In this document: in pieces, positions 2,635-31,183 of the stretch
Position numbering within the stretch: the stretch's first letter is position 1
Layout of the letters: every line of letters starts with the position of its first letter
Assembly: GCA_963768055.1 (NCBI GenBank)
Contig: CAVYGN010000002.1
Span: forward strand, 1,760,001 to 1,824,000
DNA: 64,000 nucleotides
From: an uncultured Spirochaetota bacterium
Lineage (GTDB): Bacteria; Spirochaetota; Brevinematia; Brevinematales; JAOACQ01
Reading direction: 5' to 3'
Notes under the pieces: model-generated
Databases searched by the model: none
What the model was told of the DNA's origin: nothing
What the model saw: the letters and a program-made list of their open reading frames with translations, nothing else
Translations under genes and position numbers: made by a program

Positions 2635-2745
2635 TTTAACCCACATTTCCCAGATGAAATTTTGTTTTCTTAGAGAAAACATGGCATAATCATATATCAG
2701 GATAGGAATTAGATTACTAAAAAACCTTCATAACTGGAGGATTCA

Positions 2746-4218: not shown

Positions 4219-4247
4219 TTGACAAAGTTATTTTACGGAATCATAAT
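4219..4247 (+). promoter_or_regulatory. Outward-facing sigma70-type promoter near the IS right end
   Basis: TTGACA-17 nt-CATAAT inside the IS, pointing out through IRR. Confidence 0.65.
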
Positions 4248-4298
4248 AAATCAATCCATTAAATGGGAGAGTTTGGGGTGTCATTTGGGAAATATCGG

Positions 4299-6807: not shown

Positions 6808-6823
6808 TAAAAGGGGGATTAAT

Positions 6824-7930: not shown

Positions 7931-7937
7931 ACACTGA

Positions 7938-12682: not shown

Positions 12683-15600
12683 CTGTGCGCTCCTTCTCTT
12701 CAAGAACCTCTTTCTTGTCAAAAAGAGGCTTGAGTACTTCCTCATACCAGTCTCTGAATTCGGTGCATTCAAGCGCTTCGCTTGATGAAGAAAAGCATCG
12801 GGCTACCCTGGGATCGTTCATATCCGAACCATAATCATTATATCCGGGTTCAAACTTTCTCCGGGCGCATTCAAGGGCCGCTTCCCGGTCGCCTTCATTT
12901 TCTTTCATTCTCTCCGCGTATTCCAGAGAACTTTTACTGAAAAGACAGGCCGGTTTAAGAAGGCCCTTTTTATAATAAGAAATGAGATTTTCCAATTCGT
13001 GTTTAGCTTCTGCGGCAGATTCCATAGGGTTCAATTTTAAACCTTCTCCCCTGAACACCGCCATACTTATTATCCTCTCATCGAGATTGATAATTAAATG
13101 ATCTATCCAGATCGAGAAAAGATCCCTCATTTTAATATTGGCGGGCCTGTAATATAATAGCTTATCCGGCGCTTTTTTAATATTCAGGTTTCCGATAAGC
13201 CGTGCGCCGTTAAGGCTCAGATCTATGTTCCTGCTGTGGATCAGGCACTGCTTGTAGAAAGGCGCCATTGCCTTTACCCTGTCGGCAAAATCCCGGGCTT
13301 TCGAAATGATTTTTTTTAATTCGATCTCGCCGATCCTGCCCGGAGGGAATTCGCCGGATTTTAACCTGACATCCCTTTCCCTTGTAAAAAGTTCTTCTTC
13401 GGTTTTTCCGTTTAGCAGGTCTTCGATCAAATCTTTCTGGAGAAGGAAGGATTCCAGATGGCTGACTCCGAAGGGTTCAAAATCTTCAAATTCTTCTTCT
13501 GGATTCCCGGCCCTGATCTTTAAAATATTTTCGAACAAATATTCCTGGGGATTGTCGTAAAAGCTTTTCAGATCGTCCAGGGCGAGCTCTTTCAGATCGC
13601 TGATTATATCAGGAGGAAGAACCTGCCTGAAAAAACGCGGGTATTCATCACCAGACCTGCCGGAAGCTAACACTTCGGCCGTATGAAAGGATGTTTCAGA
13701 AAAACTTTTCAGGCCGGAGCCGGGTTCAAAATACATCGGATCGAAAGAATGAAGCCGGTGTTTGAATATTTTTCTCCTATCGCCGGTGACATTTTCAAGC
13801 AGTTCGTCTATACACACGGAGGGAGGGATTTCGCTGTTATCTTTCATGTTCTGCCCGGTATATGTCACTATGAAAGCCTTCTCTGAATTATTAAAAGCCT
13901 CAATAAAGCCTTCTCTGTCATCGAGCCGCTGGGATCTGTCATGAGGCCGGGGTTTTCCCATCAGGTCAATGTCTGATATGGGGTCCATGCGGGGAAAAGC
14001 CCCGAATGCCATTCCCATAAAACCTGTCAACTTGGCCGGTATGCCCCGGCCGTTGGCGGGACTGCAGAAAGTTATTCCCCCGATCAGCGAAGACCTGCCG
14101 GGCCTGGATAGAGACAACCCTGATGAGACTGACTCAAAAATTATTTCGGATGAAACTTCCATTTCGCCCCTATATTCGCAAAGTTCGTTGATGATTGCCC
14201 TGAGATTACCGACATCCGTTTCTTCATCCTCATCCTGCCGGGGATCGTAAATGAACAGGTCGACAAGGTCCATCAAGGTTTCACGCCATGAGCTTATAGT
14301 CATCTTTACAGACATTTTTTCCCTGAATAGTATTGCCCTGTCAATGAACAGGTCGAACTTTGCAAGCGATTCCAGGTCGGATTCCTCAATATTGCCGGCA
14401 GGCAGAACCTCTTCAAAGATCTGTTTTCTTTTATCGCTCTGCGCTTCGGGCAGGAACACATAGGCCAGGAATAACCTTTTCAATCCCTCGCGCCAGGAAT
14501 TTTCCTCGAACGCGGGAACATTGAACCGTTCGGCGCGGTCTTTCCCGTCAACCCCCCATGCGATGCGTGATTGTCTTACCCACTCCCTGACTTTTATAAG
14601 GTCTTCATTGCTTGCTCCGAAACAGCGCATCACGGGTTCGTGTTCGAAAAGCCCGAGCATTTCCGATGCGGTAAACCGAATATCCGGAAGCCGCAGTAAT
14701 GTAAGGAAAGAAGAATAAACGGGCGATTGCCTTGAAGTAGTCCGGCCGGATATCATGTAATCGAGGGGATTGTCGCCCTCGCTTCCGAAAACAGCGCTGA
14801 TATATGGCGCATAGGCTTCGAGGTCAGGCACATTTATTATGACATCATCAAGGAGAATATCCTTATCTTTATCGAAGATCTCCAATAACTGGTCCTTCAG
14901 CGCTTCAGCTTCACGGAGCATACTGTGGCAGGAATGGATAAATACGGAAGGCTGTTTTTTACCGCTATTCGATCGCAGTTCTTCTTTTAATTCGCCTGTA
15001 AGTTCCGAACCCCGGCCAGGGCTGCCGAGCCCTATGTCGTAGAAATATATCTCGCAATGTTTCTTGAGAAAAGTTATGAGATCCCGGTGGAAGGGGGTCA
15101 TCAACCGGACGCCGAAGATAAAAATCGATCCCGGAAGTTTTTTAACCATCCTTCCCGATTCTAGTTTCGAAATCAGGTTAGCCTTGTGAATCTTCCCTTT
15201 CATAACCGTGCGCCAGAGTTCGGGCTGCCAGGGATGTTCTACAGCGGCGCTGTCAATTCCGGCTTCCCAATCCAATACCATTTCTCTTCGAAATACTGCA
15301 TACTGGTCAAAGAGGTCGGCAACCATCCTGGATAACCTGAAAAGCCGGAGGTCATATAGTATCTGCCTGTCCTTTTCATCTACTTCAGCCGGCGAAAGAT
15401 GGTCTTTGACTTCCTTGAATGACGTTTTTTCGAGCTGGCTTCCAATGGAGTCCATGATTTCCCATACAAGGAGACTTGAATTTTCTGAGAGCGCCGGACT
15501 ATTTTCACCGAGAAACGCTTCTATCGCCAGGGTCGTCAGCCTGTCGGGGAATTTCATTTCAAGATTAGCTGAAATTCCATTTTTTTCGGCGACACGGAGG

Positions 15601-15743
15601 GATATCCATTTCATCATTGTGAGAGTTGGGCTGACGATAAGGGTGCGTTCAAGAGGCGCTTCCCCGGTATGTTCCTTAATTCTCTCCGAGAGATGGGCAA
15701 TAAGGCTATCGGCCGAATCGCCTGAAATGATTTTCAATGGCAT
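12666..15743 (-). CDS. recC: Exodeoxyribonuclease V gamma subunit
   Basis: ADLFDQYAVFR, WQPELWR, HSCHSMLREAE, YAPYISAVF, IAWG, PPSVCIDEL; recC-recB-recD order. Confidence 0.92.
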   Translation of the reverse strand: MPLKIISGDSADSLIAHLSERIKEHTGEAPLERTLIVSPTLTMMKWISLRVAEKNGISANLEMKFPDRLTTLAIEAFLGENSPALSENSSLLVWEIMDSIGSQLEKTSFKEVKDHLSPAEVDEKDRQILYDLRLFRLSRMVADLFDQYAVFRREMVLDWEAGIDSAAVEHPWQPELWRTVMKGKIHKANLISKLESGRMVKKLPGSIFIFGVRLMTPFHRDLITFLKKHCEIYFYDIGLGSPGRGSELTGELKEELRSNSGKKQPSVFIHSCHSMLREAEALKDQLLEIFDKDKDILLDDVIINVPDLEAYAPYISAVFGSEGDNPLDYMISGRTTSRQSPVYSSFLTLLRLPDIRFTASEMLGLFEHEPVMRCFGASNEDLIKVREWVRQSRIAWGVDGKDRAERFNVPAFEENSWREGLKRLFLAYVFLPEAQSDKRKQIFEEVLPAGNIEESDLESLAKFDLFIDRAILFREKMSVKMTISSWRETLMDLVDLFIYDPRQDEDEETDVGNLRAIINELCEYRGEMEVSSEIIFESVSSGLSLSRPGRSSLIGGITFCSPANGRGIPAKLTGFMGMAFGAFPRMDPISDIDLMGKPRPHDRSQRLDDREGFIEAFNNSEKAFIVTYTGQNMKDNSEIPPSVCIDELLENVTGDRRKIFKHRLHSFDPMYFEPGSGLKSFSETSFHTAEVLASGRSGDEYPRFFRQVLPPDIISDLKELALDDLKSFYDNPQEYLFENILKIRAGNPEEEFEDFEPFGVSHLESFLLQKDLIEDLLNGKTEEELFTRERDVRLKSGEFPPGRIGEIELKKIISKARDFADRVKAMAPFYKQCLIHSRNIDLSLNGARLIGNLNIKKAPDKLLYYRPANIKMRDLFSIWIDHLIINLDERIISMAVFRGEGLKLNPMESAAEAKHELENLISYYKKGLLKPACLFSKSSLEYAERMKENEGDREAALECARRKFEPGYNDYGSDMNDPRVARCFSSSSEALECTEFRDWYEEVLKPLFDKKEVLEEKERTGDQEL

Positions 15744-15758: not shown

Positions 15759-16877
15759 TCATTTCGGCAATGAGACATCGCAGTAATATGAGTAATCCCC
15801 TCCTGATGGGGCTGATACCGGTTCGCTTTTTTGCGTTTTAAAATCATAATAATAAAATTCGGTGTTTTTTTCATATGTTTGGACAGAATAAATTAAACCC
15901 ATGCTATCACCCGTCATGGAAGGGTATATTGGGACATCCGAGGAAGATTTTGAAGTATACAGCAACTTTTCATTTGAAACGGCAAGATTGGCAATGTCTA
16001 TTTCGGCGGTAGCGATAGATTTTTTTCCATAATAGATTATAAATTCTTCCCCTTTCGACCAGGTATTAAAAGGCATCTCATAAAAGGGTTTATGCCAGTA
16101 AGAATATTCCAGTTCGTAACTGAGCCGGTTTTCGTCCTTCGACAGGGTCAAGTGAAAGGGAAAACCCTCCAGTTTGCCCCGGAAACGAAGCTGCTCGTAT
16201 TTCCCGTTTTTGCCGGGATCGGGGGTCAAAACGAACATATAGGGCGGAAGGTAATATCCGTCCTTTTCAGGGCTTGACGAGAACAGGTAGGCGAATATGT
16301 TTTCAGCGTTCCTGTCGCTGAATATTATTATCCTCCCGTCCCTGAGGCATGTAAATCCTGTTTCATTACGCGAACTGTCGCTTATAAGAATTTCATCGCC
16401 GGGCTTTGCACCTACCGCTGTGCGGTAAATATACCATCTCCATTTGGAGTAATCGAAGCGGTTGAATATTATAAAATTCGAACCCTCCCGTGACCATGTA
16501 GGGCTGAAATCGTTAAATTTGTCCCCTGTAAGCTCCTGTAATCCTGTTCCATCGGGGTGTATTATACATATATAAGAGCTTGAGCCGTCCGATGTTTTTT
16601 TCGATAATCTGGAAAATAAGATCCATTTTCCATCGGGGGACCAGGACAGTTCCATATCGTAACCCCCGGTGATCTTTTTTTCCATTGTTTTTCCCGGTGT
16701 CACCGTATTGATGAAAATACTTCCGTTAAGGGTATATGCCCCATGAAAATCGGTAATATCCATGATCGTATTGGTAATCTGGTTATTGAAAGGAGGGGCC
16801 GAGGTATAATTTTGATGTCTCGCATGGACCAGGCTGAAAAACGATGCAAGCAGGATTAAGATTATACCCAACCGCAT
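15759..16877 (-). CDS. Secreted TolB-like (PD40) beta-propeller protein
   Basis: Signal peptide MRLGIILILLASFFSLVHA; SWSPDGKWILFS, PDGTGLQELT, SPTWSREG. Confidence 0.75.
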   Translation of the reverse strand: MRLGIILILLASFFSLVHARHQNYTSAPPFNNQITNTIMDITDFHGAYTLNGSIFINTVTPGKTMEKKITGGYDMELSWSPDGKWILFSRLSKKTSDGSSSYICIIHPDGTGLQELTGDKFNDFSPTWSREGSNFIIFNRFDYSKWRWYIYRTAVGAKPGDEILISDSSRNETGFTCLRDGRIIIFSDRNAENIFAYLFSSSPEKDGYYLPPYMFVLTPDPGKNGKYEQLRFRGKLEGFPFHLTLSKDENRLSYELEYSYWHKPFYEMPFNTWSKGEEFIIYYGKKSIATAEIDIANLAVSNEKLLYTSKSSSDVPIYPSMTGDSMGLIYSVQTYEKNTEFYYYDFKTQKSEPVSAPSGGDYSYYCDVSLPK

Positions 16878-17113
16878 TGTAACTCCAGAAAATAACATCT
16901 ATAATTCCTTAAATTCTAATATAAAATCAGGGATTATTCAATAGGAATTTCAGCTTATATAATAAATTCGTGTGAATTATGCCATGTTATAACAATTAAT
17001 TCCAATTTTATTGGATTAATCTCATTTATTCTTTATAATAAAAAACAAAATGAATTCTCCGGGGTAAACGCCCTCCAAATTTTACATTCCCCCGGCGGAA
17101 AACCGGATTACAA

Positions 17114-18067
17114 ATGGGTTATTATATCTTCATTTTATATTTAATTTCCTATTCAACGGGTTTTGCCTCTCTGACCCTTTTGATTTTACTCTATATAAGG
17201 CATAAAACCGGGTCGATACTTTATTATATTATTTATCTGATAGTTTTTACCGGCACCCTGGTCCTGAATAATATCGAATTTTACAGGGTTTCCATTCTTT
17301 TCAAATACGACACTTACTCTAGCATCTGGGTGAAACTGATTTACAATCTCCTTTTCGGGGCCTTGTTCTATATTGTTCCCCTTTACAACCATAAATTCCT
17401 TAACCTTGCGTTTCACCTCTTTCATAAATTAATTTTTGGCGCGCTTTTCCTCTTCTCTATAATTATTGCGTTTATACCCTATTTATACGAGGGGATCAGG
17501 CGCGGCCAGGCAATGATATTAAGTTTTAAGATTACTGTATTTATAGCTATAGCGATAATATTGTATTGTATAATCCTATCCATATCCGGCATCAGGAAAA
17601 CCAGCGTCGAGGAAAAAAAAGCTGTAATCCGGTTTTTCCTTATTTACAATGCCCTTTATTTCCTGGTTCTCATGTTCGAATATTACTGGAATTTTAATTT
17701 TCAGAACAGGATAAGGCCTATCTCCTTCGGCAATCTTTTTTATTTCGTACTTAACCTTATTACCGTTTTATTCATTTCAAGGAACTTTTTCATCCCGCAG
17801 GCAAAAGTATCCCTTGACGACATACCGGACGGGATCCTCAGGAAGTTTAAGCTTACGCCAAGGGAAAAGGAGATAATAATAATGATATCGAAAGGCCTTA
17901 CGCATAAGATGATAGCTTCCGAATTGGGAATAGCCACGCTGACCGTCAAAAACCATATTTATAATATCTATCAAAAAACCAAGGCAGTCAGTAAGATCGA
18001 CCTTGTCAATAAAATAAACCTTGGAAATCCGGTCGTGGAATCGAAATTCAATTCCATTTTTTCATAG
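17114..18067 (+). CDS. Membrane-anchored LuxR-family transcriptional regulator
   Basis: About 7 hydrophobic helices, then LTPREKEII..GLTHKMIASELGIATLTVKNHIYNIYQK HTH. Confidence 0.9.
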   Translation: MGYYIFILYLISYSTGFASLTLLILLYIRHKTGSILYYIIYLIVFTGTLVLNNIEFYRVSILFKYDTYSSIWVKLIYNLLFGALFYIVPLYNHKFLNLAFHLFHKLIFGALFLFSIIIAFIPYLYEGIRRGQAMILSFKITVFIAIAIILYCIILSISGIRKTSVEEKKAVIRFFLIYNALYFLVLMFEYYWNFNFQNRIRPISFGNLFYFVLNLITVLFISRNFFIPQAKVSLDDIPDGILRKFKLTPREKEIIIMISKGLTHKMIASELGIATLTVKNHIYNIYQKTKAVSKIDLVNKINLGNPVVESKFNSIFS

Positions 18068-18129
18068 TTCATGGGCTTTAAAGCCAGTTCATACCGCTTT
18101 TTCCCGGCCTCATGAGACAAATGGCTCAC

Positions 18130-18158
18130 TTGTAAAAAAAATCGGGATAGTCTATAAT
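18130..18158 (+). promoter_or_regulatory. Putative sigma70 promoter for the ankyrin-ExbBD-ABC operon
   Basis: TTGTAA-17 nt-TATAAT. Confidence 0.5.
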
Positions 18159-18251
18159 TCCCATTGAAATCGTATCATTATCAGTTTAAACTATATTGAA
18201 TTTTAAACAACCGGACTCGCTTATTTTTCAATAACTGCAAAGGGGTAATTC

Positions 18252-20462
18252 ATGAAACAAATTCTTCAGGCATCTTTAATTTTGTTTTTGGTTTTTTTTA
18301 TACCTCATATAATTTTCGGGGACGCGGCGGATGAGTTTTTCGATGCAATCGCGGTCAATGACCTGCCGTCAGTTATAAACTATCTGCAGGCCGGCGGGGA
18401 CCCCAATGTGAGGGATGAATACGGCACTACTCCGTTAATGCTTGCGGCTAAGACAGGTAATTACGACGCGGCCTGCCTGATCCTCCATGACTTTTCCTCG
18501 CCGGGGGTTGTTGCTTTAAAGAGATATGACCAGGTAAAGGCGTATCTTAAGTCGATAGAAAGGGGGCCTAAGTCTGATGTAAACATCAGGAATAATGACG
18601 GTATGACCGCCTTGATGGCTGCCGCTTTAAGCGGGAACCTCCAGATGGTAAGCCTTATTGTAAAAGCGAAGGCCGATATAAACGCTACCAATAACGACGG
18701 AATAACGGCCCTGATGGGCGCCGCGATTACCGGGGACCCCGATATTGTAAAGCTTCTGATCGAAAAGAGAGCCGGGGTGAATATCAAGAACAGGGACGGT
18801 TACACGGCCTTAATATTGGCAGCCGAGAACGACAGGTCCGACTTTGTCAGATTAGAGGTAAAGACAATAAAAGAGGCGAAAATAAAGCAGGACCTTGAAA
18901 AAGTCGCATTGATCCATGCCGCGCACAACAGGCATTCTGATGTAATAAAGATCCTGATCGAAGCAAAGGCCGACATCAACGCCAGGGATAAAAAGAACGA
19001 GACTGTATTGATGAAGGCCGCCCGGGACGGCCATGCCGATATAGTAAAACTTCTTGTCGATAACGGCGCCAATGTAAACGCGAAAGACGACGGGGGCGGA
19101 ACAGCCTTCATGGGCGCAGCCGAAAGCGGACAACCCGAAGCAGTGCGGATCCTCCTTGAAGCTAAAGCCGATGTAAATGCCAAAGATAAAACAGGAAAGA
19201 CAGCCTTAAACAGGGCGGCTGAAAAGGGTCAGTCCGATATCGTCAGGATGCTTCTTCTCGGCAAAGCCGATATAAATCTTAAAAATAATGAAGGCATGAC
19301 GCCGCTTATGCTTTCGGTTTCAAACGGGCGGACGGAAGCCGCCAAAACCCTTCTTGAATCAAAAGCCGATTGCAACGCAAGGGATAACGGGGGCTCGACC
19401 GCCCTGATACTTGCCGCATACTTCGGCAGGGCGGATATGGCAAAACTCTTGATAGATTCCGGCGCCGATATCAACAGGAAAAACAACGACGGGACGACAG
19501 CCCTGATGATTGCTGCCTCAAAGGGTTACGCCGACATCTTAAAACTCCTTATTAGCGCCGGCGGCGATTTTAATGCCAGGGACAACGACGGCATTTCGGC
19601 TTCAACAGCAGCGGCGTCTAAAGGCGACACCGAGATACTCAAGATCCTTGCCGGTTCCGGGGCGAATATAAACTCAGCCGACAGCGACGGTATGACCGCA
19701 TTAATGGCCGCGGCGTTGAAGGGAAATACCGACATTATGAAAATAATTATAGACGCGGGGGCCGACGTAAATGCCAGGGATAAAAAAGGCATGACAGCGC
19801 TGATAGGGGCGGCATACAAGGGGAAAACCGAGGCCGTTAAAATGCTTTTGGACTATAAAGCGAAGGTAAACATAAAGACGATTCAGGGATCTACCGCCCT
19901 TCTTGGAGCTGCTCAAGGCAATGAAAGCGACACGGTCAAGATTCTTATCGATTCCGGGGCGGATGTGAATCTGCAGGACAATGACGGAACGACCCCGCTG
20001 ATGGATGCGGCTTCAGGAGGAAATGAAGAAGTGATAAAGCGCCTTATCGACGCGAAAGCGGATGTGAACGCAAGCGACAAGTTCGGGCAAACCGCATTGA
20101 TCGAAGCGGTAAGGAATAATCATGACGGGGCCGTCAGGATCCTTATCGAGGCTAAAGCCGATGTAAACGCCAGGGACAGCGATAATCAGAGTTCTCTGAT
20201 GCATGCAGCATATAACGGTAACGAGGATATAGTAAAAATCCTTATAGATTCAAAAGCCGACGTAAATTCTAAGGACGTAGACGGCCAGACTGCCCTGATG
20301 CTTGCGGCCTATCAGGGGCGCGGAGAAGTCATAAAGATTTTGATCGATTCAAAGGCGGACGTTAACGCCAGGGACATGCATGGCCAGTCGGCTTTGATGT
20401 TTGCTCTGAATAAACAGAACAGCGAAATAATTAATTTATTGAAAGAAGCCGGAGCTAAATAA
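18252..20462 (+). CDS. Secreted ankyrin-repeat protein (about 20 repeats)
   Basis: Signal-like N-terminus; tandem 33-aa G-x-TALMxAA...LIxAxADVN repeats. Confidence 0.95.
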   Translation: MKQILQASLILFLVFFIPHIIFGDAADEFFDAIAVNDLPSVINYLQAGGDPNVRDEYGTTPLMLAAKTGNYDAACLILHDFSSPGVVALKRYDQVKAYLKSIERGPKSDVNIRNNDGMTALMAAALSGNLQMVSLIVKAKADINATNNDGITALMGAAITGDPDIVKLLIEKRAGVNIKNRDGYTALILAAENDRSDFVRLEVKTIKEAKIKQDLEKVALIHAAHNRHSDVIKILIEAKADINARDKKNETVLMKAARDGHADIVKLLVDNGANVNAKDDGGGTAFMGAAESGQPEAVRILLEAKADVNAKDKTGKTALNRAAEKGQSDIVRMLLLGKADINLKNNEGMTPLMLSVSNGRTEAAKTLLESKADCNARDNGGSTALILAAYFGRADMAKLLIDSGADINRKNNDGTTALMIAASKGYADILKLLISAGGDFNARDNDGISASTAAASKGDTEILKILAGSGANINSADSDGMTALMAAALKGNTDIMKIIIDAGADVNARDKKGMTALIGAAYKGKTEAVKMLLDYKAKVNIKTIQGSTALLGAAQGNESDTVKILIDSGADVNLQDNDGTTPLMDAASGGNEEVIKRLIDAKADVNASDKFGQTALIEAVRNNHDGAVRILIEAKADVNARDSDNQSSLMHAAYNGNEDIVKILIDSKADVNSKDVDGQTALMLAAYQGRGEVIKILIDSKADVNARDMHGQSALMFALNKQNSEIINLLKEAGAK

Positions 20463-20475
20463 AGGGGGACCGTTT

Positions 20476-23439
20476 ATGATGACAGTGATAAAATGCGTGC
20501 CGTATATTTGTTCATTTATCATACATGCAATGTTATTCGCCCTGCTTTATAATTCTTTTACAGGCGGAATTGGGCGGGAACAAAGCGGTAATGACATTAA
20601 GATCAGCAGGAAAGAAGCAGGGATGTTTAAACAAATATCACAGCCTAACAGTGCTTGTAGCGACGAACAAAAGAACAAAATTGAAAACGAATATAATAAA
20701 AAATACAGGGATGCTTACAGCAAAATAAACGATATAATGAAAGAAAACGGATCCAATACTAATTTCCGCATCGATGACTTTGTCAACGATATCAATAAAA
20801 GCCAGAAAACGATCGACTCGCAGTTCTCGGAATATACCAGGAAAATGATAGATGAAGATATTACGAACGGCATTTTGAAAAATACTTCAGAATATATAAA
20901 GAAAATGATAAACGAAGATATAAAAAGGGATTTAATGGCTTTGAAAGATAAAAGTAAAAACAACAAAAATTCCGACCGCTCTAAATCATTCAGGGAGCTT
21001 GCCGAAATCAACAGGGAGGCCGTCAATGCAACATTGAAAAAGTTTGACGAGTCCCTTTTGAATAAATACAAAGAAAAACTCGAAGCCGATATAAAGCAAA
21101 AATATTCCGGGATATCCCTTTTACCTGAAAACAGGAAAGAATTGAAAAAAATTATCGATGAAAGCGCCGAATACTTAAAATCGAAAATGTTAAAGGAAGT
21201 CGCGAAACTGGATATTTTTAAGGAAGAATTAAAAAACAACAATGAAAATAACATCCCCGATCTTAATACAAAAATCGGGAATGATATTGCAATTGAAAAT
21301 AATACGATTAATAAATTGGAAAAAATGATGGACCGCCTTGTGGAAAAAAGCGATGAACTTGATTCGAATCCGGATGGCAAGAATCTTGATGATTATAAAA
21401 AAGAATTGTCGGATATAAGAAATGAAATTAAAGGACAGCTGGGTGAGCTCCTGGATAAGGCTGATTCCCTTAGTTTAAAGGAAACCGCTCAAAGCATGAT
21501 GTCTGAAATAGATAAAAACGAGTTTAAAACTGCAAACAAGGACCAGTTGAAAGATGCATATAAAAAAAGTTTAGACGAAACAGTTGAAAATATTTCAATT
21601 CTTAATTTTATAGCCTCTCATTACAGCGATCAACCGGCCGCCTGGGAAGGGGTTTCAAACAATGATAGAAATCCGAAGCATGAAAATAATTTAAAAGATA
21701 AAACCGTGCTGGATAATAATCTTAAAAATAAGATCGATAAATCGGCTGAAATATCTGTCGATATAATCTCGAATTCCATTGAAAAAGAGATGAAAAAAAA
21801 TGTAAGTACTTACAACGCCCAATTCAGTTTAGATCAAGTTGAAAACAGCAGGACTTATGCTTTCGGGATTCACCCGGGGGATTATTATAAGGATGAAGAT
21901 TCAGTACGGAAAGACGATTCAAAGCCGGTAAATCAGACGATTGAAAACGGGACTCCGGGAGCATCCGGGTCTCCCATTTATGCCGACCTCAACAGGAAAG
22001 TAGAAAAATATGGGGATGGGGGCGGATTTAAAGAAATCGGTTTAGGGCCCGGGCACAATGACAAAAGGGAAGGCGATGAAAGGTTTACGAGAAAATTCAC
22101 TGCTGCTGATACCGGGATGGGTTTCAGGGTCAGGGACCTTATAGAATTCATGAAAAAATTCGGTAGCAGGTCCAGGGCATTAAATTTAAATTTCGAGTAT
22201 TCAGCGGCCCGTGGAGAAGCCACGGAGGCAACGCCGGTATCGTACAGCTACCCTAAATATGTATATATATCCGAAGAACAGAAATCGCAGATCGAAGAAT
22301 TAATGAAAAATAATGAGGATGAAAATAATAAAAAAGAAATGAGTTTATACAGCAGCTTCCCGGCTTACGCCCGTATCCCATATCAGCCCCATGAATTAAA
22401 GATCGACGGTGACCTCTCGGAGTGGGGCGAGCTCGATAACCCGGTACAGATGCAGTATGCTTCGGACAACGGCCATGATAAACTGACAAACGGCGTAAAA
22501 TTGTACATGCGCTGGAACGAATCCGGATTTTATTTTGCCTATAAGTCGGACAATACGAACAGGATAAATTTGCCCGACGAGATAGAAGACGATTATGACA
22601 GGGCGACCTATGACGTGACCCAGGACAAATGCGACGGCGACACGTTCGAATTCTGGATCGACCAGGCGGATAACCAGGAGCCGACTGCCTGGGAAAGCAC
22701 CTTTATAAGGCTTTTTACGTTCAGCCCCTTTGCCGCTCCCGGCCTTTATATCGATTATTTCCGCCAGTATGAGCATAGGCAGATAGAGGATAATTATCAT
22801 GTAAGGATCACGAACAGGCAGACTCCTACGGGTTATATAGTCGAGGCTTTTTTAAGCAAGGATGTCCTTCCGAAAAATGTGGCCCTTCATCCTAAAAAGC
22901 AGTTTGTATGCAACTTTTCAATAAACCAGGGATCAGATTGGGGCCCGTATTCGTCCCAGTGGTCTGCATCCAGGGCTATCGACAGCAGGGTCAGGCCTAA
23001 TACCTGGGGATGCATTGAGCTGATGGGTTATAAGCCTGAAATCGAGGTAAAGGATTATAACCAGGAGGGCCCTGGGGGGAAGGGGTCTGAATTTATATTC
23101 CCGGGCCAGGCTGTGAAAATTTATATAAAGGACCCTGAAAGGATATTCGATTCGAGCAGCCGCGAGATGATCCCCGCATATGTCGGGATCATAGGAAACG
23201 ATAATAAAAAAAAGATCAATCTTATTGAAACGGAGAAAGGTTCGGGTCTCTTTTATGCAAGCATAAATACAAAATCCTTTGAAAACTCGACAATGGCAGA
23301 CGCACTCCTTGTTAGGCCCGGCGATATTTTATTTGTAGAATACAGAAAATACAATGAATCTTCCACTGACGAGGCTTTCAATCAGAAATATTTCCTGTAC
23401 CTTCCGGTAGTAAATTCGTTTTATTCGACAATGAAATAA
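20476..23439 (+). CDS. 987-aa membrane-anchored protein: TonB/TolA-type TM anchor, long helical region, CBM9-like domain
   Basis: N-terminal TM containing SFIIH (SxxxH); K/E/N-rich helical region to about aa 440; KIDGDLSEW..LYMRWNESGFYFA..GDTFEFWID..GYIVEAFL (CBM9/DOMON-like); directly upstream of exbB/exbD. Confidence 0.6.
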   Translation: MMTVIKCVPYICSFIIHAMLFALLYNSFTGGIGREQSGNDIKISRKEAGMFKQISQPNSACSDEQKNKIENEYNKKYRDAYSKINDIMKENGSNTNFRIDDFVNDINKSQKTIDSQFSEYTRKMIDEDITNGILKNTSEYIKKMINEDIKRDLMALKDKSKNNKNSDRSKSFRELAEINREAVNATLKKFDESLLNKYKEKLEADIKQKYSGISLLPENRKELKKIIDESAEYLKSKMLKEVAKLDIFKEELKNNNENNIPDLNTKIGNDIAIENNTINKLEKMMDRLVEKSDELDSNPDGKNLDDYKKELSDIRNEIKGQLGELLDKADSLSLKETAQSMMSEIDKNEFKTANKDQLKDAYKKSLDETVENISILNFIASHYSDQPAAWEGVSNNDRNPKHENNLKDKTVLDNNLKNKIDKSAEISVDIISNSIEKEMKKNVSTYNAQFSLDQVENSRTYAFGIHPGDYYKDEDSVRKDDSKPVNQTIENGTPGASGSPIYADLNRKVEKYGDGGGFKEIGLGPGHNDKREGDERFTRKFTAADTGMGFRVRDLIEFMKKFGSRSRALNLNFEYSAARGEATEATPVSYSYPKYVYISEEQKSQIEELMKNNEDENNKKEMSLYSSFPAYARIPYQPHELKIDGDLSEWGELDNPVQMQYASDNGHDKLTNGVKLYMRWNESGFYFAYKSDNTNRINLPDEIEDDYDRATYDVTQDKCDGDTFEFWIDQADNQEPTAWESTFIRLFTFSPFAAPGLYIDYFRQYEHRQIEDNYHVRITNRQTPTGYIVEAFLSKDVLPKNVALHPKKQFVCNFSINQGSDWGPYSSQWSASRAIDSRVRPNTWGCIELMGYKPEIEVKDYNQEGPGGKGSEFIFPGQAVKIYIKDPERIFDSSSREMIPAYVGIIGNDNKKKINLIETEKGSGLFYASINTKSFENSTMADALLVRPGDILFVEYRKYNESSTDEAFNQKYFLYLPVVNSFYSTMK

Positions 23440-23471
23440 AGGGCCGAAAGGTCCTGTAAAGGAGGAATTAT

Positions 23472-24107
23472 ATGAGCTATACCGAGATTTATTCGCCTGT
23501 TCTATACCCCATGTGGCTGATGTCGTTTATTCTGGTGGCTCTTGTTATCGACAGGCTCTGGTTCCTGAGGAAAAGAAGTATTTTCGACAAAAATATGATC
23601 AAAGACGTCCAGAAGCATGCGTTGCTTCTTGAGTTCGATAAGGCCCGGGAAAGGGCTGAAAGTTCCAAAAGCTTGCTGGGAAAGGCATGGAGCAAGGGCT
23701 TTCGGGAGTTTCTTAGCGGAGGGACAAATCTTATGGACGCTCTTTCCGAATCTACTTATTTAATGATGTCTCCTCTAAAAAGAAACATTACCGCGATCGG
23801 CACAGTTGCTTCGATAGCCCCTCTGTTCGGACTCCTCGGTACCCTCATCGGGCTCATAATAATCTTTTCACAGCTTGGGGGAGCCGGGGCCGATGAAAAA
23901 AAGCAGCTTGCCGTCGGAATAGGTCATGCCCTCTATTCTACTATCGGCGGACTTGCCGTAGCTATACCGGGAATAATATTTTACCGTTATTTTAAATCGA
24001 AGCTTTCCAGGTATTCGGAAAACGCGGAATACGAGATCGACCTGATCAAGCATAACTATATGATTTCAAAAAATATTAAAGCCGCTAAGTCAGAACAGGA
24101 AGGATAA
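23472..24107 (+). CDS. exbB: MotA/TolQ/ExbB proton channel protein
   Basis: APLFGLLGTLIG and ALYSTIGGLAVAIP; AGGAGG RBS. Confidence 0.92.
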   Translation: MSYTEIYSPVLYPMWLMSFILVALVIDRLWFLRKRSIFDKNMIKDVQKHALLLEFDKARERAESSKSLLGKAWSKGFREFLSGGTNLMDALSESTYLMMSPLKRNITAIGTVASIAPLFGLLGTLIGLIIIFSQLGGAGADEKKQLAVGIGHALYSTIGGLAVAIPGIIFYRYFKSKLSRYSENAEYEIDLIKHNYMISKNIKAAKSEQEG

Positions 24108-24111
24108 AGGT

Positions 24112-24552
24112 ATGAGAAGGATCATTAGTTTTGACGATGATGAAGAATTATTGAATCTCATCCCCCTTATAGACTGCCTGTTTATTCTGATTATATTCCT
24201 TGTAACCGCGCTGACTTTTAAAGAGCAGATATTCAAACCCGATGAAAAGAAAATGTACGGCATAGAACTGCCTCAATCAAAAAAGAATGAAACCATAAAT
24301 GTTGACGATCCCCTCATTATCTATGTCAAGTCGAACGGCGATTATTTTATCGAAGAAAAAAAATACGATGAGGATTCCATCGACGCCTTTTTCACGCTGA
24401 AGGGAAAAAGTGAAAACAAGGTCGTTATATATGGGGATAAAAAATGCCCGTATGAAAAGATCGTCTATCTAACCGAAATTGCGAGATCTCATGGGATCAA
24501 TTACATAGCCTTTTATGTTATGGAGAAAACGGCCCAGGAAGCTGTAAATTGA
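24112..24552 (+). CDS. exbD: ExbD/TolR family protein
   Basis: NLIPLIDCLFILIIF (conserved TM Asp), IELP, VVIYGDK. Confidence 0.92.
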   Translation: MRRIISFDDDEELLNLIPLIDCLFILIIFLVTALTFKEQIFKPDEKKMYGIELPQSKKNETINVDDPLIIYVKSNGDYFIEEKKYDEDSIDAFFTLKGKSENKVVIYGDKKCPYEKIVYLTEIARSHGINYIAFYVMEKTAQEAVN

Positions 24553-25469
24553 ATTGCGGGCCGGCGGTATGTTTTGACGACGTATCGTGCAAAATCTCCA
24601 GGAATACCGTGCTCAGCCATATAAATCTCAATATTAGTTATGGCAGCATTCAAGGCATTCTGGGCCCGAACGGCGCCGGTAAAACAACCCTTCTATCTAT
24701 AGTACTGGGCTTAAGGCGCCATACCGGAGGAAGAGCAACCGTATTGGGTGAAAAACTGCCCGGGGGAGGAAACGGTTTACTGAGGCGGATTGGAGCGGTT
24801 CTTCAGGAAACCGCTCTCTATGAAGAACTGACAGCCTATGAGAACCTTCTTTTTTCCGCTTCTCTTTACGGAATTTCCAATCCTAAAAAGAGAATTTTAG
24901 AGGTCCAGGAACTTCTTGGACTTTCTGATTGGTCCGGTAAAACCGTAAACGCTCTTTCCGGAGGCATCCGGCGCAGAGTCGCCATAGCCAGGTCGCTTCT
25001 GCATAAACCCGATTTGCTAGTGATTGATGAACCTACGCTGGGTGTAGACGCCGAAGCAAGGCATGACATCTGGTCTCATTTGAGACTGTTAAGAAAAGAG
25101 GGAACAACGATACTGGCGGCCACAAATTATATCGATGAAGCCCTGGCAATATGCGATATAGTTTCGGTCATAAGGTCGGGCTCTCTTATTGTTACTGAAA
25201 AACCCGGAATATTAATCGAACGTGCAGGGCGTTGCCTTGATATAGAATGTAAAGCGGAGAATTCCGCGGAAATAATGTCATTGCTTGAAAAAACCGAAGG
25301 GATTGTTCGGATGGAAAAGACGCCTATCGGTTTGACGATATTTATGAACGGCATTTCAAAGCCGGAAAAGCTTATCATGGATGTTATGAATTCAGTTAAA
25401 ATAAACTCCTTTCGAATCAGGCCACCGGATCTTGCTGAGGTTTTCAGCGCGCTGGAAAGCAATTTATGA
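24549..25469 (+). CDS. ABC-2 exporter ATP-binding subunit
   Basis: GPNGAGKT, LSGG, IDEPT; H-loop appears as TN; overlaps the exbD stop. Confidence 0.93.
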   Translation: MNCGPAVCFDDVSCKISRNTVLSHINLNISYGSIQGILGPNGAGKTTLLSIVLGLRRHTGGRATVLGEKLPGGGNGLLRRIGAVLQETALYEELTAYENLLFSASLYGISNPKKRILEVQELLGLSDWSGKTVNALSGGIRRRVAIARSLLHKPDLLVIDEPTLGVDAEARHDIWSHLRLLRKEGTTILAATNYIDEALAICDIVSVIRSGSLIVTEKPGILIERAGRCLDIECKAENSAEIMSLLEKTEGIVRMEKTPIGLTIFMNGISKPEKLIMDVMNSVKINSFRIRPPDLAEVFSALESNL

Positions 25470-26572
25470 AGATTATGTTAAACGCACTTCTTGGCGCCCT
25501 TCGGGCCGAGATTGCTCAAATGGGGCGTTCGAAGCTTCTCCTGGTATTGACCGCCATGCAATCTGTGATTTTTATATTGCTTTTGAGTATCTTCGGACTT
25601 ACCGGGAGCAGGGCCCCTACGGCGGTGGTCGATAAGGACGGCGGAAAGTATTCCGGGGCTTTTATCGATTGCCTGAAAAGGGCCCATAATTCTTTTTCAA
25701 TAAGATTAATGGATGAGAAAACGGCCGAAGCGGAAGTATCACGAGGGGATCTGGTATCGATGATAAAGATACCCCGTGATTTTTCACAAGAGATCGCGTT
25801 GTACAAAAATGTATTTATCGATGTCACTATTGATAATGTCGACGTTGATATGACGGAGGATATTCAGAGGGCGATACCCTCTGCAATAGTTAAATTTTCG
25901 GACACAGTCAAACTTCCCGGGATAAGGGTCAGGGTCAGTGAAGATGATTTAATAGATCATGACACTGATTTTATCCCTTATCTTGCCGTCAGTGCGCTGG
26001 CGCTGGCTGCGTTTGTCGTAGCCGGAATTTTGGGCGCCTCTGCGGTTTCACGCGAATTCGAGGCCGGGACAATAAAACTTCTTAAGTTAGCGCCTGTTCC
26101 GCCGCTTGTAACAATAATCGGCCGTATAATCGCCGCCGGCCTTTACTCTTTAACCGTACTGATTATTAGTGTGGGTGTAATTGTCATAGGGTACGGCATC
26201 AAACCAGCACATCCCGTCGAACTATCATTTGCACTTGTAATCTGCGTTATTATTTTCGGATGCGCAGGCGCAGCTCTGGGAGCTGTTTTCAAACGGACGC
26301 TTACGTCCGCTTCTCTTATTTTCGGGCTTGCTCTTCCGTTTTATATTGACAGCGGAGCTCTGGAACCAGAACGTTTTGACGGCAACGCCATCTGGGCGCT
26401 GGCCCATTTATCGCCGGTTTATTATGCGGTAGGAATTCTGGAACATGCCTTTCATGGTTTCCTGGTGACGCCGGAGTCTGTTTTTGTCGATTTTATCGCT
26501 CTCGGCATATGGGCAATCGTCTTGCTCATTATCACGGCAAAGATCATGAAAAGGAAAATATTATTATGGTAA
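25466..26572 (+). CDS. ABC-2 type permease
   Basis: AVVDKD extracytoplasmic domain, SREFEAGTIKLL, six TMs; ATGA coupling. Confidence 0.88.
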   Translation: MKIMLNALLGALRAEIAQMGRSKLLLVLTAMQSVIFILLLSIFGLTGSRAPTAVVDKDGGKYSGAFIDCLKRAHNSFSIRLMDEKTAEAEVSRGDLVSMIKIPRDFSQEIALYKNVFIDVTIDNVDVDMTEDIQRAIPSAIVKFSDTVKLPGIRVRVSEDDLIDHDTDFIPYLAVSALALAAFVVAGILGASAVSREFEAGTIKLLKLAPVPPLVTIIGRIIAAGLYSLTVLIISVGVIVIGYGIKPAHPVELSFALVICVIIFGCAGAALGAVFKRTLTSASLIFGLALPFYIDSGALEPERFDGNAIWALAHLSPVYYAVGILEHAFHGFLVTPESVFVDFIALGIWAIVLLIITAKIMKRKILLW

Positions 26573-27696
26573 GAGGAATATGGATTATTTCCATTCTTGA
26601 CCTTCGGATCTGGATGAGAATGCCCCTGGCAATAGTCAGCGCCCTTGTTCCTCCATTCGGGATGGTACTTCTCCTGATTGTGTTAGCCCTGTCGGTAGGA
26701 AAACAGCCTGTCGCTCTTGTGGTTTCTTCCAGCGGTCCTTTTGCCCGGAGGATGGCTAAAATTATTGAAAAAGACACCGAGGCTTATCTTCTTGCCGTAA
26801 CGGACACAATAAGCGCGTCAAAAATGCTTGCGGGCCAGGAAGTCGCGGCTGTGATAACGATTCCGCTCGATTTCGATTCCACGCTGGCCAGTGGAAGCGC
26901 AAGGGTCAATCTGAAAATAAACAATATCGATATTGATTTTTCCGATGACATAAGGCGCTCAGTAGACCGTTCTGTCGCTCAGTTTGACGCTCCAGGACTT
27001 GGCTTAGGTGAAAACGAAAATGAAAATGAAAATATAGATATGCCGAATCCTTATCTAATTCATGTCGCTGAAGATAATCTCAGGACAACTAATGTCGATT
27101 TTTTAAGATACCAGGTTATACCCGCCCTGGTGCTCCTCGTCCTAAGCATAGGGCTGACGGGGACAGCTCTTATGTGCGCTCTGGACAGGGAAAGGGGTAC
27201 CGGCCGTTATCTTATTATTGCGCCAGCCTCATCGTGGTCCTTTATTTCAGGAAGGATATTGGGAGGATTATTAGCGGCTATGGCCGTCCTTGTACCTTCG
27301 GTTGCGGTTTGCATCCTGACCGGCATTGTATCTGTTCCTATGGGACACTGGCCGGCCCTGGTCTTTCTTTTTTTAGCGACAGGTCTGTGCTCTTCCGGAT
27401 TGGGAACGCTCGTCGGCAGCCTGTTGAATGGTTCGCGCCTTGCCGCAATGGCATCATCGACAATAGCAACTTTCATGTTCTTCCTTGGCGGCGGGTTTAC
27501 AACGATTGCTTTTCTGCCGAACTGGCTGAGAAATTTAAGCTCATTTATACCTTTCCGTTACTCGATTGAAGGATTGAGGCAGATCCTGTTCTACCCGGGT
27601 CTTGAAGGGGTTGCATTGGACCTGGCTGTACTAGCCGGAAGCGCCCTCCTGTCAGTATTCGCCGGAGCAGTTCTTTTTCGAAGGTCGATTTTTTAA
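26566..27696 (+). CDS. ABC-2 type permease
   Basis: DRERGT motif, FLGGGF..LPNWL..P; ATG 26566 preferred. Confidence 0.88.
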   Translation: MVRGIWIISILDLRIWMRMPLAIVSALVPPFGMVLLLIVLALSVGKQPVALVVSSSGPFARRMAKIIEKDTEAYLLAVTDTISASKMLAGQEVAAVITIPLDFDSTLASGSARVNLKINNIDIDFSDDIRRSVDRSVAQFDAPGLGLGENENENENIDMPNPYLIHVAEDNLRTTNVDFLRYQVIPALVLLVLSIGLTGTALMCALDRERGTGRYLIIAPASSWSFISGRILGGLLAAMAVLVPSVAVCILTGIVSVPMGHWPALVFLFLATGLCSSGLGTLVGSLLNGSRLAAMASSTIATFMFFLGGGFTTIAFLPNWLRNLSSFIPFRYSIEGLRQILFYPGLEGVALDLAVLAGSALLSVFAGAVLFRRSIF

Positions 27697-27705: not shown

Positions 27706-27751
27706 TTGACAAAATAGATATATCATGATATTATATATCATATCGATATAT
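27706..27751 (+). promoter_or_regulatory. sigma70 promoter overlapped by a palindromic operator (likely PadR autoregulation)
   Basis: TTGACA(27706)-17-TATTAT(27729) with TG extension; palindromes ATATCATGATAT (27720-27731) and ATATATC-N5-GATATAT (27733-27751). Confidence 0.75.
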
Positions 27752-27762
27752 AAAGGACTGAT

Positions 27763-28299
27763 ATGTTAATTCCATGTATCCTTGGTTTTTTAAACATTAT
27801 GCCGATGACGGGCTACGAGATCAAAGCCTTTATGGAAAACAGCACCCGCTATTTCATGTTCGCAAGTTTCGGAAGCATATATCCCGCCCTGCGGAGGCTG
27901 GAGAAAATGAAACAGATCGAGTCTGCTCAAGAAATTTATAACGGCAGGCTTAAAATTATCTATTCAATTACCAAAGCGGGGAAAAAAGAATTTATGAAAT
28001 GGCTTTCTTCCGTTTGGACCTTTGATAAAGGCATGGAGGAAATGCTTCTGCGTATTTTTTTTGCGGGTTTTCTTCCGAAGGAAGAAATCAAAAATAAATT
28101 TATGGAATTGAAGGAATCCATTGAAAAGAAGCGCCTTGAATTATGCGAACTTGAAAAAGATATGCCGGAAGATCATATAAATTCATTTGAGCATTCCACT
28201 CTCGTTTACGGCAAGGATTTTTATAATTTTACTAAAAACTGGATCGAGAAAAATATGAATAGCTTGAAAATGAGAGATAATAAAGGAGAGAGCATATGA
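27763..28299 (+). CDS. PadR family transcriptional regulator
   Basis: ILGFL..PMTGYEIK, GSIYPALRRLE, YSITKAG. Confidence 0.93.
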   Translation: MLIPCILGFLNIMPMTGYEIKAFMENSTRYFMFASFGSIYPALRRLEKMKQIESAQEIYNGRLKIIYSITKAGKKEFMKWLSSVWTFDKGMEEMLLRIFFAGFLPKEEIKNKFMELKESIEKKRLELCELEKDMPEDHINSFEHSTLVYGKDFYNFTKNWIEKNMNSLKMRDNKGESI

Positions 28300-28856
28300 A
28301 AGCCGTCATTATATCCGACAAAGATTTCCAGACTGAGCTTTATATGAAACTGGAAGGGCAGGTTACAAGTTTTTTAAAAAGCAGGGGTTTTGAAACAGAA
28401 ATAATAAAAATCGGCAGGGCTGAGCTCAAGTTTTGCATGGGCTGCTTCGGCTGCTGGGTTAAAAAACCGGGAGAATGTATCATTAACGATATGATGGGCC
28501 GGATTAACCGCAGTTTCGTTAATAGCGATGCAGTTCTGTATCTCAGTCCTCTGGTATTCGGCCAGTTTAGCGCGAATATTAAAAACGCTATAGATAGATG
28601 GCTTCCGAATATGCGGCCTTTTTTCATTACAAGGCCCGACCGTTCGACTATTCATCCGGCAAGATACAAATTAAACCCGAAAGTTATTATGATAGGTTAT
28701 GGCGAGAATCTTTCAGATGAAGACGAACAGCTTTTCAGCGACATTTCAAAAAAGCACAGGAGCAATGTCGAAGTCCTGATCTATAAAAATCCGTTTAATA
28801 ACATTACTGAAGAATTGAACGGCATAAAACTTGAAAAAACCGGGGGATATTTATGA
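28296..28856 (+). CDS. Flavodoxin/iron-sulfur flavoprotein family protein
   Basis: CMGCFGCWVKKPGECIIND, SPLVFG, KNAIDR. Confidence 0.85.
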   Translation: MKAVIISDKDFQTELYMKLEGQVTSFLKSRGFETEIIKIGRAELKFCMGCFGCWVKKPGECIINDMMGRINRSFVNSDAVLYLSPLVFGQFSANIKNAIDRWLPNMRPFFITRPDRSTIHPARYKLNPKVIMIGYGENLSDEDEQLFSDISKKHRSNVEVLIYKNPFNNITEELNGIKLEKTGGYL

Positions 28857-31165: not shown

Positions 31166-31183
31166 TACTAACCCCTTCCCCAA

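Follow-up and report, generated by a model that had tools for sequence, protein, structure and literature searches.

The Ton and Tol systems are the textbook routes by which the energy of the inner membrane reaches the outer envelope of Gram-negative bacteria. The electron cryomicroscopy structures of TonB-ExbBD and TolAQR show the transmembrane helices of TonB and TolA touching ExbB or TolQ through the so-called SHLS motif, of which Ser-x3-His forms the first half (PMC12905483, PMC12204202), and residues D23 of TolR and T145 and T178 of TolQ are described as essential to the proton path (PMC12905483). Force transducers with a vWA head have been reported as well, in which a TolA/TonB-like anchor with a histidine of the SHLS type and a tolQR-like synteny are combined with an unrelated head (Williams-Jones et al. 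2025, PMC12204202), indicating that other heads can ride on the same anchor-and-motor chassis (PMC12204202). Here we analyze a locus of this general kind in a stretch of 64,000 nucleotides (nt), hereafter the window, from an uncultured bacterium of the Brevinematales (Spirochaetota; assembly GCA_963768055.1, contig CAVYGN010000002.1, positions 1,760,001 to 1,824,000 of the forward strand), the genome of which (G000) comprises 3.69 Mb in two contigs. Between positions 15759 and 27696 of the window, a gene for a membrane LuxR-type regulator and a divergent gene for a PD40 propeller protein precede a run of genes encoding an ankyrin protein, a 987-amino-acid (aa) protein that we term the arm, the motor subunits ExbB and ExbD and an ABC-2 exporter. 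Comparison with related genomes and with distant metagenomic loci reveals a conserved core of only three genes, coding for the arm, ExbB and ExbD. We regard it as probable that the locus consists of three adjoining units (motor and arm, LuxR-PD40 pair, and ABC-2 exporter) and not of a single machine, and the arm, the head of which has the fold of the CBM9 sugar-binding modules, is apparently an undescribed kind of envelope force transmitter to which an ankyrin protein has been joined in this genus alone.

The features on which this reading turns are the following, in positions of the window:

18252 to 20462, plus strand: leader-bearing ankyrin protein of 736 aa, encoded by the first gene of the operon (Ank_2 E 9e-197; 17 Ank stretches)
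20476 to 23439, plus strand: 987-aa TonB/TolA-like arm, a candidate force transducer, with one N-terminal transmembrane segment
20497 to 20559, plus strand: anchor helix of the arm, about residues 8-28 (Ser13-x3-His17-x6-Leu24)
22363 to 23028, plus strand: CBM9-like/DOMON-like beta-sandwich of the arm, about residues 630-851 (AlphaFold2 model; structure and profile matches)
23026 to 23433, plus strand: C-terminal immunoglobulin (Ig)-like beta-sandwich of the arm, about residues 851-986 (fold and profile match to 8c8k)
23472 to 24107, plus strand: ExbB/TolQ-type motor subunit, 211 aa, three transmembrane segments (MotA_ExbB PF01618 E 3.1e-26)
24112 to 24552, plus strand: ExbD/TolR-type motor subunit, 146 aa (PF02472 E 1.8e-17)

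All the open reading frames (ORFs) named in a preliminary description of the window were found where it had placed them, and the closely spaced run that it had reported from the ankyrin gene to the last permease gene is borne out: from the ankyrin gene onward the successive gaps are 13, 32, 4, -4, -4 and -64 nt, and hence at most 32 nt where the genes do not overlap, with the last overlap shrinking to about -7 nt should the internal ATG at position 26566 be the start of the second permease. Searches over the whole genome placed no match to TonB_C, to a TonB-dependent receptor barrel or to an OmpA/Pal-type protein in the window. The locus was therefore rightly described as devoid of a canonical TonB, receptor or Pal, but a partner of the TonB/TolA type is nevertheless present in the form of the 987-aa protein.

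The arm matches no Pfam or NCBIfam family above the respective cut-offs and contains neither TonB_C nor TolA domain III. A word-indexed search with the full-length protein returned no more than two relatives, with identities of 57% and 46%, both of the same genus, a result that proved misleading because a profile built on the 448 C-terminal residues matched, among 1.84 billion representatives, 292 clusters at E<=1e-3, of which 121 remain at E<=1e-10 and 39 at E<=1e-30. Many of these matches are proteins of 850-1300 aa with the matching region at the C-terminus, and the ten relatives looked up by cluster bear as names only "hypothetical protein" or raw TARA metagenome gene identifiers. An alignment of 37 rows, composed of P0001-P0003 and of 34 of the 37 relatives fetched, reveals a single shared build of anchor helix, long spacer, Gly-rich stretch and conserved C-terminal region. 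A transmembrane segment is detectable at the N-terminus of 35 of the 37 proteins, the other two looking N-terminally truncated, and Ser-x3-His is found in 33; neither S13 nor H17 varies among the close relatives, and H17 is at least 90% conserved across the 37. In the window protein the anchor motif consists of S13, H17, L24 (seven residues after the His) and S27, and the positions of the Leu and of the last Ser vary across the family. The spacer (domain II) extends over 490-664 aa, with about 2% Pro, and is rich in Lys, Glu and Asp, or in Ala in those members with a high guanine-plus-cytosine (GC) content. That of the window arm, of about 500 aa, is charged and Pro-poor, and hence resembles TolA rather than TonB.

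The arm and the motor remain together well beyond the genus. Metagenome contigs were scanned with patterns from 12 distant arm members (a closer set, the first alignment being too diverse), yielding 74 loci, and hidden Markov models iterated from the window proteins were run on all six-frame ORFs of these. A match to the arm family was obtained in 72 of the 74 loci, among which 34 ExbB and 38 ExbD ORFs were also found. Twenty-six loci lack flanking sequence, and in 36 of the 46 informative ones ExbB/ExbD lie on the same strand within 1.3 kb of the arm gene, mostly in the order arm-ExbB-ExbD and, in one subclade, ExbB-ExbD-arm. The loci with motors have 55-74% GC. Clustering of the neighbours left ExbB and ExbD as the sole widely recurring ones, and a Pfam search on 49 ORFs from 18 sampled loci matched MotA_ExbB in nine and ExbD in six. 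Relatives of the ankyrin protein, the PD40 protein, the ABC-2 permeases and the membrane LuxR were found in none of the 74 loci, and only one ABC ATPase fragment was detected. Co-conservation of the ankyrin, ABC and propeller genes with exbBD, on which the preliminary description had staked its model, was thus not observed in these loci from outside the genus. What stands of that first reading includes an ExbBD motor serving a non-canonical anchored partner, the 987-aa arm; the exporter and the propeller do not belong to it as parts. A distant subclade presents neighbours of its own, with a 650-915-aa protein ending in a Laminin_G_3 (ConA-like) domain preceding the arm in L064, L073, L075 and L078 and a GH123 glycosidase following it in L052 and L068; several loci of this subclade have no adjoining motor.

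The motor itself looks functional, and its subunits are matched by models of both Pfam and NCBIfam. The nearest solved chains to the two subunits are TolQ and TolR, with ExbB and ExbD only slightly behind, the best match of the window ExbB being TolQ 8odt_A (E 2e-9). Residues T124 and T157 of ExbB align with T145 and T178 of TolQ, and D21 of ExbD aligns with D23 of TolR. Maximum-likelihood analysis of 33 ExbB sequences places the window ExbB in a clade of 19 with 99/98 support, of which the other 18 members are all ExbBs located beside CBM9-type arms. The genome codes for five MotA/ExbB-family proteins, two of them adjoining canonical ExbD and TonB genes outside the window, and these TonB-linked ExbBs fall outside the clade. 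Two further members of the superfamily in the same genome deserve mention in their own right. An odd ExbB paralogue without an adjoining ExbD (L082, G000:C2:1085001-1096000, at 2319-6577) is flanked by genes for a 700-aa DUF4015 putative glycosyl hydrolase and for a 486-aa protein with a SurA_N-like start. At G000:C2:1445756-1447348, on the other hand, a gene for a distant 275-aa member of the MotA/ExbB family is followed by an OmpA-domain gene in a MotAB-like pair, which is divergent from a canonical exbB-exbD-tonB set and has upstream of it a two-mismatch copy of the 14-mer discussed below.

For the head of the arm, an AlphaFold2 model computed from four sequences was unusable (predicted local distance difference test score, pLDDT, 39.5) and was replaced by a rerun of residues 621-987 with a 64-sequence alignment (pLDDT 89.9, predicted template-modelling score 0.87). 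For residues 630-851 the top Foldseek match is TmCBM9-2, the CBM9 module of Thermotoga maritima xylanase 10A (1i82_A, E 1.4e-11, target-normalised TM-score 0.76), followed by CkCBM9 (7nwn). The same chain is returned by VIA, an aligner independent of Foldseek (Z 17.7, root-mean-square deviation 2.8, 184 of 189 residues), ahead of the haem-binding DOMON-like subunits 2ivf_C (Z 12.3) and 7b04_C (Z 11.8), and the profile of the arm family matches the 1i82 sequence with E 2.6e-12. Pfam CBM9_1 (PF06452) is matched by 29 of 37 relatives, the window protein itself lying below threshold, and the ESM Atlas gave weak leads for the window head (0.80) and none for one distant relative. The remaining Ig-like domain, with the signature DxDMN...ETGxxSGxF...GD..Y.D, corresponds to a repeated Ig-like domain of the Nitrosopumilus maritimus S-layer protein 8c8k by both structure (VIA Z 14.0) and profile (E 6.4e-13 to the same chain). 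This Ig-like module also recurs in giant proteins (P0005-P0007, P0011; 4788-7180 aa), where it is present in 15-27 copies.

In TmCBM9-2 the sugar is clamped between Trp71 and Trp175, and CkCBM9.3 employs Tyr and Trp (PMC8280721). The position equivalent to Trp71 is occupied by Trp, Tyr or Phe in 54 of the 64 aligned sequences, and that equivalent to Trp175 by one of the same residues in 40. The corresponding positions of the window head are C719 and R838, neither of them aromatic, and the other three Brevinematales heads have Cys, Cys and Asn at the first and Lys, Arg and Lys at the second, so that all four sequences of the order present Cys or Asn at position 1 and Arg or Lys at position 2. 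An aromatic residue adjoining the second position (Tyr or Phe in three of the four) could act as a substitute. Since the clamp aromatics are kept in most relatives, the ligand of these is probably a glycan, and their heads look able to bind sugar; since both positions have been lost in this genus, the target here may be a protein, its heads not looking able to bind sugar, at least not in the canonical manner. The glycan binding suggested in the preliminary description is hence doubtful for the window protein. These data bear directly on the proposal of a TonB-like nutrient system, in which the CBM9-type head would capture a saccharide or contact a glycan-handling protein of the outer membrane while the motor powered uptake. 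The fold itself, the clamp retained in most relatives and the Laminin_G_3 proteins upstream (four distant loci) and GH123 glycosidases downstream (two) of distant arms agree with such a role, but the window head is devoid of both clamp aromatics, its locus holds no gene for a TonB-dependent receptor, SusD-like protein or glycosidase, and the glycan-related neighbours are confined to a distant subclade in which several loci have no adjoining motor. We therefore consider a nutrient system a rather unlikely explanation of this locus.

Within the Spirochaetota the arm family is found in only 3 of 401 genomes searched and 1 of 152 genera, all in the Brevinematales (3 of 35 genomes, 1 of 12 genera), with two copies in genome G020. 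This narrow range, together with relatives elsewhere that are mostly of high GC, is consistent with acquisition by this genus. Genome G023 (locus L001) repeats the full gene order of the window; in G020 the order is LuxR (minus strand), PD40 (plus strand), ankyrin protein, arm, ExbB and ExbD, followed by a major facilitator superfamily (MFS) gene. Identities to the window proteins in L001 and L006 are, respectively, 63 and 54% for the ankyrin protein, 57 and 46% for the arm, 87 and 74% for ExbB, 86 and 68% for ExbD, 78 and 50% for LuxR and 66 and 46% for the PD40 protein, and the ankyrin orthologues of the two loci are collinear with that of the window (740 and 738 aa). The order ankyrin-arm-ExbB-ExbD is the same in the three genomes, with gaps of 13-16, 15-34 and 3-5 nt. 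The ankyrin protein, which had been taken as part of the apparatus, thus lies directly upstream of the arm in all three carriers of the genus, but in none of the 74 distant loci, and we regard it as an accessory specific to this genus. The second arm gene of G020 is an orphan, coding for a 1002-aa paralogue without an adjoining motor in which Ser-x3-His is retained, as it also is in additional TonB proteins that share one ExbBD. In G021, on the other hand, there is no arm gene, and no ankyrin gene lies beside a remnant of exbBD (L084, G021:C2:1886000-1904000, at about 6772-10120), in which exbD retains its full length (69% identity), exbB has been cut down to 140 codons (76%) and an IS66 transposase gene separates fragments of LuxR.

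Patchy distribution, loss and decay mediated by an insertion sequence within a genus are features that an anti-phage defence of the Zorya kind would also display, with a 5:2 motor and a long arm sensing perturbation of the envelope, and the ankyrin protein does match the PADLOC models PDC-M72A, Ankyrin and MzaA, by its repeats only. Against this, PADLOC returned no family for the arm, ExbB or ExbD, the motor is of the ExbB/ExbD type and not MotA/MotB-like as ZorAB is, the operon contains no gene for a nuclease or other effector, and distant loci have ordinary metabolic genes as their neighbours. A defence role is, accordingly, highly improbable.

Immediately downstream of exbD lie the three genes of the exporter:

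24549 to 25469, plus strand: ABC-2 exporter ATPase (Pfam ABC_tran)
25466 to 26572, plus strand: ABC-2 permease 1 (Pfam ABC2_membrane_3)
26509 (or 26566) to 27696, plus strand: ABC-2 permease 2 (Pfam ABC2_membrane_3)

With an ABC_tran ATPase and ABC2_membrane permeases, this unit has the composition of ABC-2 type exporters such as DrrAB, NodIJ or the YbhFSR-like systems, and all its NCBIfam equivalog matches fall below their cut-offs, so that no substrate can be named. The preliminary description had proposed that the ankyrin protein, the anchored arm, ExbBD and this exporter constitute one export apparatus driven by both the proton motive force and ATP, under LuxR control and with the propeller acting in the manner of TolB. 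Reading frames that overlap or nearly touch from the ankyrin gene to the last permease gene, in the window as well as in G023, and the fact that exbD and the ATPase gene are not separated by any strong terminator-like site are in line with it, as are variants of the 14-mer described below that lie in the same relative orientation upstream of stand-alone ABC operons in G021 (L085:9883, two mismatches) and G020 (L086:3595, three mismatches) and that hint at a shared regulon. These variants are weak and were found after the fact, however, and, like another that precedes the second PD40 gene of G020, we treat them as a lead only. The evidence against such an apparatus comes from the relatives. The exporter is joined to the operon in the window and in G023 but forms an independent operon in G020 and G021. 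In G020 it starts about 9.8 kb downstream of exbD (57-64% identity), behind the MFS gene that follows exbD there, a histidine kinase gene, a response regulator gene and two metabolic genes on the opposite strand. In G021 it has been kept (63-66% identity) on a contig other than that of the exbBD remnant, in a genome without arm and without an ankyrin gene beside that remnant, from which it follows that the transporter does not depend on the motor module. Given also that the distant loci harbor no ABC-2 permease and a single ATPase fragment, a single export-coupled machine seems to us improbable, and the exporter is better viewed as an adjoining unit of its own.

The regulatory unit lies at the upstream end of the locus:

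15759 to 16898, minus strand: PD40 beta-propeller protein, 379 aa (Pfam PD40 E 5.2e-7, one repeat; N-terminal hydrophobic leader)
16937 to 16950, plus strand: 14-mer TTCAATAGGAATTT, candidate operator or promoter element, in the PD40-LuxR spacer
17114 to 18067, plus strand: membrane LuxR-type regulator, 317 aa (about seven hydrophobic segments; GerE helix-turn-helix at residues 247-298, E 1.5e-14)
18155 to 18168, minus strand: second copy of the 14-mer, two mismatches, located 84 nt ahead of the start of the ankyrin gene

Orthologues of the PD40 protein are found only in arm carriers (G020, with two copies, and G023), and none was detected with this query in G021 or G022. The gene is always divergent from that for a membrane LuxR, and the window and G020 differ by an inversion of the whole pair. 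LuxR-PD40 pairs also exist without a motor, one of them in G020 (L083) and another in the window genome itself (G000:C2:1187611-1190807), where a second membrane LuxR (E 6e-68 to that of the window) is divergent from two tandem PD40 paralogues. A two-mismatch 14-mer is located between these two PD40 genes. The multi-transmembrane LuxR proteins form a family of paralogues, with 13-17 matches per genome in G020, G021 and G023 and one in G022, and seven LuxR-family genes of G000 align over the membrane part. The LuxR-PD40 pair looks like a recurrent sensor or regulator module, and the notion of the propeller as a part of the motor is not supported, for it travels with LuxR and the additional pairs of G000 and G020 have no motor.

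The likeness of the propeller to TolB, claimed from the sequence alone, holds only for its PD40 repeats, given that its match to the TolB equivalog TIGR02800 (32.9 bits) falls far below the cut-off of 343.15. A rival proposal is that of a Tol-Pal analogue, in which the arm would replace TolA in tethering or constricting the outer membrane and the PD40 protein would serve as TolB. In its favor, a search of the whole G000 genome found no TolB match above the curated cut-off, a PD40 propeller gene lies next door, the motor subunits come closer to TolQ and TolR than to ExbB and ExbD among chains of known structure, and the long, charged and Pro-poor domain II recalls that of gammaproteobacterial TolA as described (PMC12204202). 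On the other hand, the PD40 protein accompanies LuxR paralogues and not motors, the head of the arm is not TolA domain III and the window contains no Pal/OmpA-type gene. In addition, two of the five genus members and 398 of the 401 Spirochaetota genomes searched are devoid of the system, which decays in G021, and such patchy presence is a poor fit to a core function in division. A Tol-Pal analogue is for these reasons an unlikely reading.

The control of the operon by the membrane LuxR, as first suggested, fares better, since the regulator stays beside the operon throughout the carriers of the genus and the spacer between PD40 and LuxR and that upstream of the ankyrin gene share a conserved motif. 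These spacers are poorly conserved overall (mean column identity 47-48%), yet both carry TTCAATAGGAATTT, oriented alike with respect to the gene downstream, in the window, L001 and L006. The site in the PD40-LuxR spacer has one mismatch in L001 and two in L006, and the one preceding the ankyrin gene is exact in both (2376-2389 in L001, 5498-5511 in L006). The exact 14-mer is present as a single copy in the 3.69-Mb genome, against 0.09 expected. This arrangement suggests that the LuxR-type protein may control both the PD40 gene and the ankyrin operon.

Taking together the domain content, the conserved gene order, the fold and the motifs described above, we favor the three-unit interpretation and propose, by analogy with the Ton, Tol and vWA-headed systems, a mechanism for the docking to the motor, the transmission of force and the ligand. 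A proton motor of the ExbB5-ExbD2 type (the 5:2 stoichiometry being assumed) would have its own periplasmic transducer in the 987-aa arm, the Ser-x3-His helix of which would dock on the rim of ExbB. Proton flow through ExbBD would then pull or turn the arm, and the head would transfer the force to a ligand situated in the outer periplasm or in the outer membrane. In this genus the target may be a protein, for which the most obvious candidate would be the periplasmic ankyrin protein (736 aa), the gene of which ends 13 nt before that of the arm, and the ABC-2 exporter would be a separate operon that has come to be butted onto exbD in this lineage. A bolder version can be envisaged, in which the head has been re-aimed from sugar to the ankyrin solenoid of about 20 repeats, the motor pulls on, or is gated through, this elastic "spring", the whole is switched by LuxR through the shared operator, and the CBM9 arms constitute a third class of transducer head. 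Taken as a package, this version has a small chance of being correct; if true, it would provide a bacterial mechanical couple of motor and ankyrin, and the known head classes would be TonB/TolA, vWA and CBM9.

Several observations weigh against the three-unit interpretation and the mechanism just proposed. Ten of the 46 informative loci (at least 1.5 kb on both sides) have no adjoining motor; three of these code for short CBM9-only proteins and one has an ExbB 2.8 kb away, but L008 codes for a full-length close relative and has no motor within 3.5 kb. The scan patterns stem from high-GC members and are biased to them, and, with near-duplicates among the loci, the counts cannot be taken as independent. 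Of the SHLS motif only a part is retained, its last Ser being off by one (three residues after the Leu, where four are expected). The window ExbB forms a long branch and is of unusual composition, so that its placement in the tree needs care. Within the genus, the three carriers are close enough, sharing a single genus, for the conserved order to be weak functional evidence, and the absence of the arm system from two of the five members and its decay in G021 imply that the motor module is dispensable. As regards regulation, the 14-mer occurs at 118 sites of the genome when two mismatches are allowed, 27 of them intergenic, and its count in the window is not above that of shuffled sequences (16 of 100 shuffles reach it); the count being unremarkable, the evidence lies in the conserved placement of the element and not in its number. 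Finally, the exbD and ATPase genes overlap by 4 nt, which makes their co-transcription likely in this genome, and a secondary functional link between exporter and motor in this lineage is conceivable.

The surroundings of the locus are of a different nature. The upstream flank (9605-15743, minus strand) encodes a UvrD/PD-(D/E)XK helicase-nuclease and RecC, which are of the housekeeping type. Downstream, at 27706-29527, a gene for a PadR-family regulator and two flavodoxin-like/FMN-reductase genes look like a separate unit bounding the cluster, and the PadR gene is preceded, at 27706-27734, by the strongest promoter-like match in the region (11 of 12 positions, with TG). Further downstream, the minus strand (30461-32674) encodes proteins of the energy-converting hydrogenase type, namely a complex-I-like subunit in which the 30-kDa and 49-kDa parts are fused and a 20-kDa subunit fused to a ferredoxin. 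Promoter-like sites (33, against 28.4 in shuffled sequences, standard deviation 6.7) and terminator-like sites (25 against 15.8, standard deviation 3.9) are near the shuffle counts and are used here in a descriptive manner only.

The combination of genes in this locus was not recognised as described when it was first read, and no published description of it was found. A search for papers pairing ExbD with CBM9 returned none, the titles and abstracts listed for ExbB/ExbD with ankyrin or with Planctomycetes revealed nothing on such a system, and the closest published counterparts are the vWA-headed transducers, in the main text of whose report CBM9, lectin, ankyrin and spirochaetes do not come up (PMC12204202). 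With these transducers the locus shares a nearby gene for a repeat protein, of the tetratricopeptide type there and ankyrin here, but their domain II is of about 100 residues as reported (PMC12204202), in contrast to about 500 in the arm, which has no vWA match in Pfam and carries a CBM9-like and Ig-like head in place of the vWA head.

The comparison with TonB and TolA themselves is closer in architecture. The arm shares with them a single N-terminal transmembrane helix with Ser-x3-His (the window protein having a Leu at His+7 as well), a gene adjoining others of the exbB-exbD/tolQ-tolR type and the succession of anchor, long periplasmic spacer and globular head, with a spacer similar in composition to the helical domain II of TolA. 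It differs in that its head, of about 360 aa, is CBM9-like and Ig-like with no TonB_C or TolA C-terminal domain, its spacer, of about 500 aa, exceeds that of TonB several-fold in length, and its gene precedes those of the motor in a locus with no TonB-dependent receptor, TolB or Pal. Lacking the defining C-terminal domain, the arm is not a member of the TonB/TolA family, even if by analogy it most likely works like one. With the CBM9 modules TmCBM9-2 (1i82) and CkCBM9.3 (7nwn), finally, the head has its fold in common, but here this fold is joined to a motor-coupled membrane anchor and not to a glycoside hydrolase. The arm family provides a concrete set for asking what else ExbBD-type motors power, with glycan handling, envelope remodelling and adhesion as candidates, and its Brevinematales version, in which the clamp has been lost and the ankyrin protein gained, is a natural experiment that could show how arms change targets. 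Set beside the TonB, TolA and vWA-headed transducers, the 292 clusters of relatives point to a further and widespread type of head, built on a sugar-binding fold.

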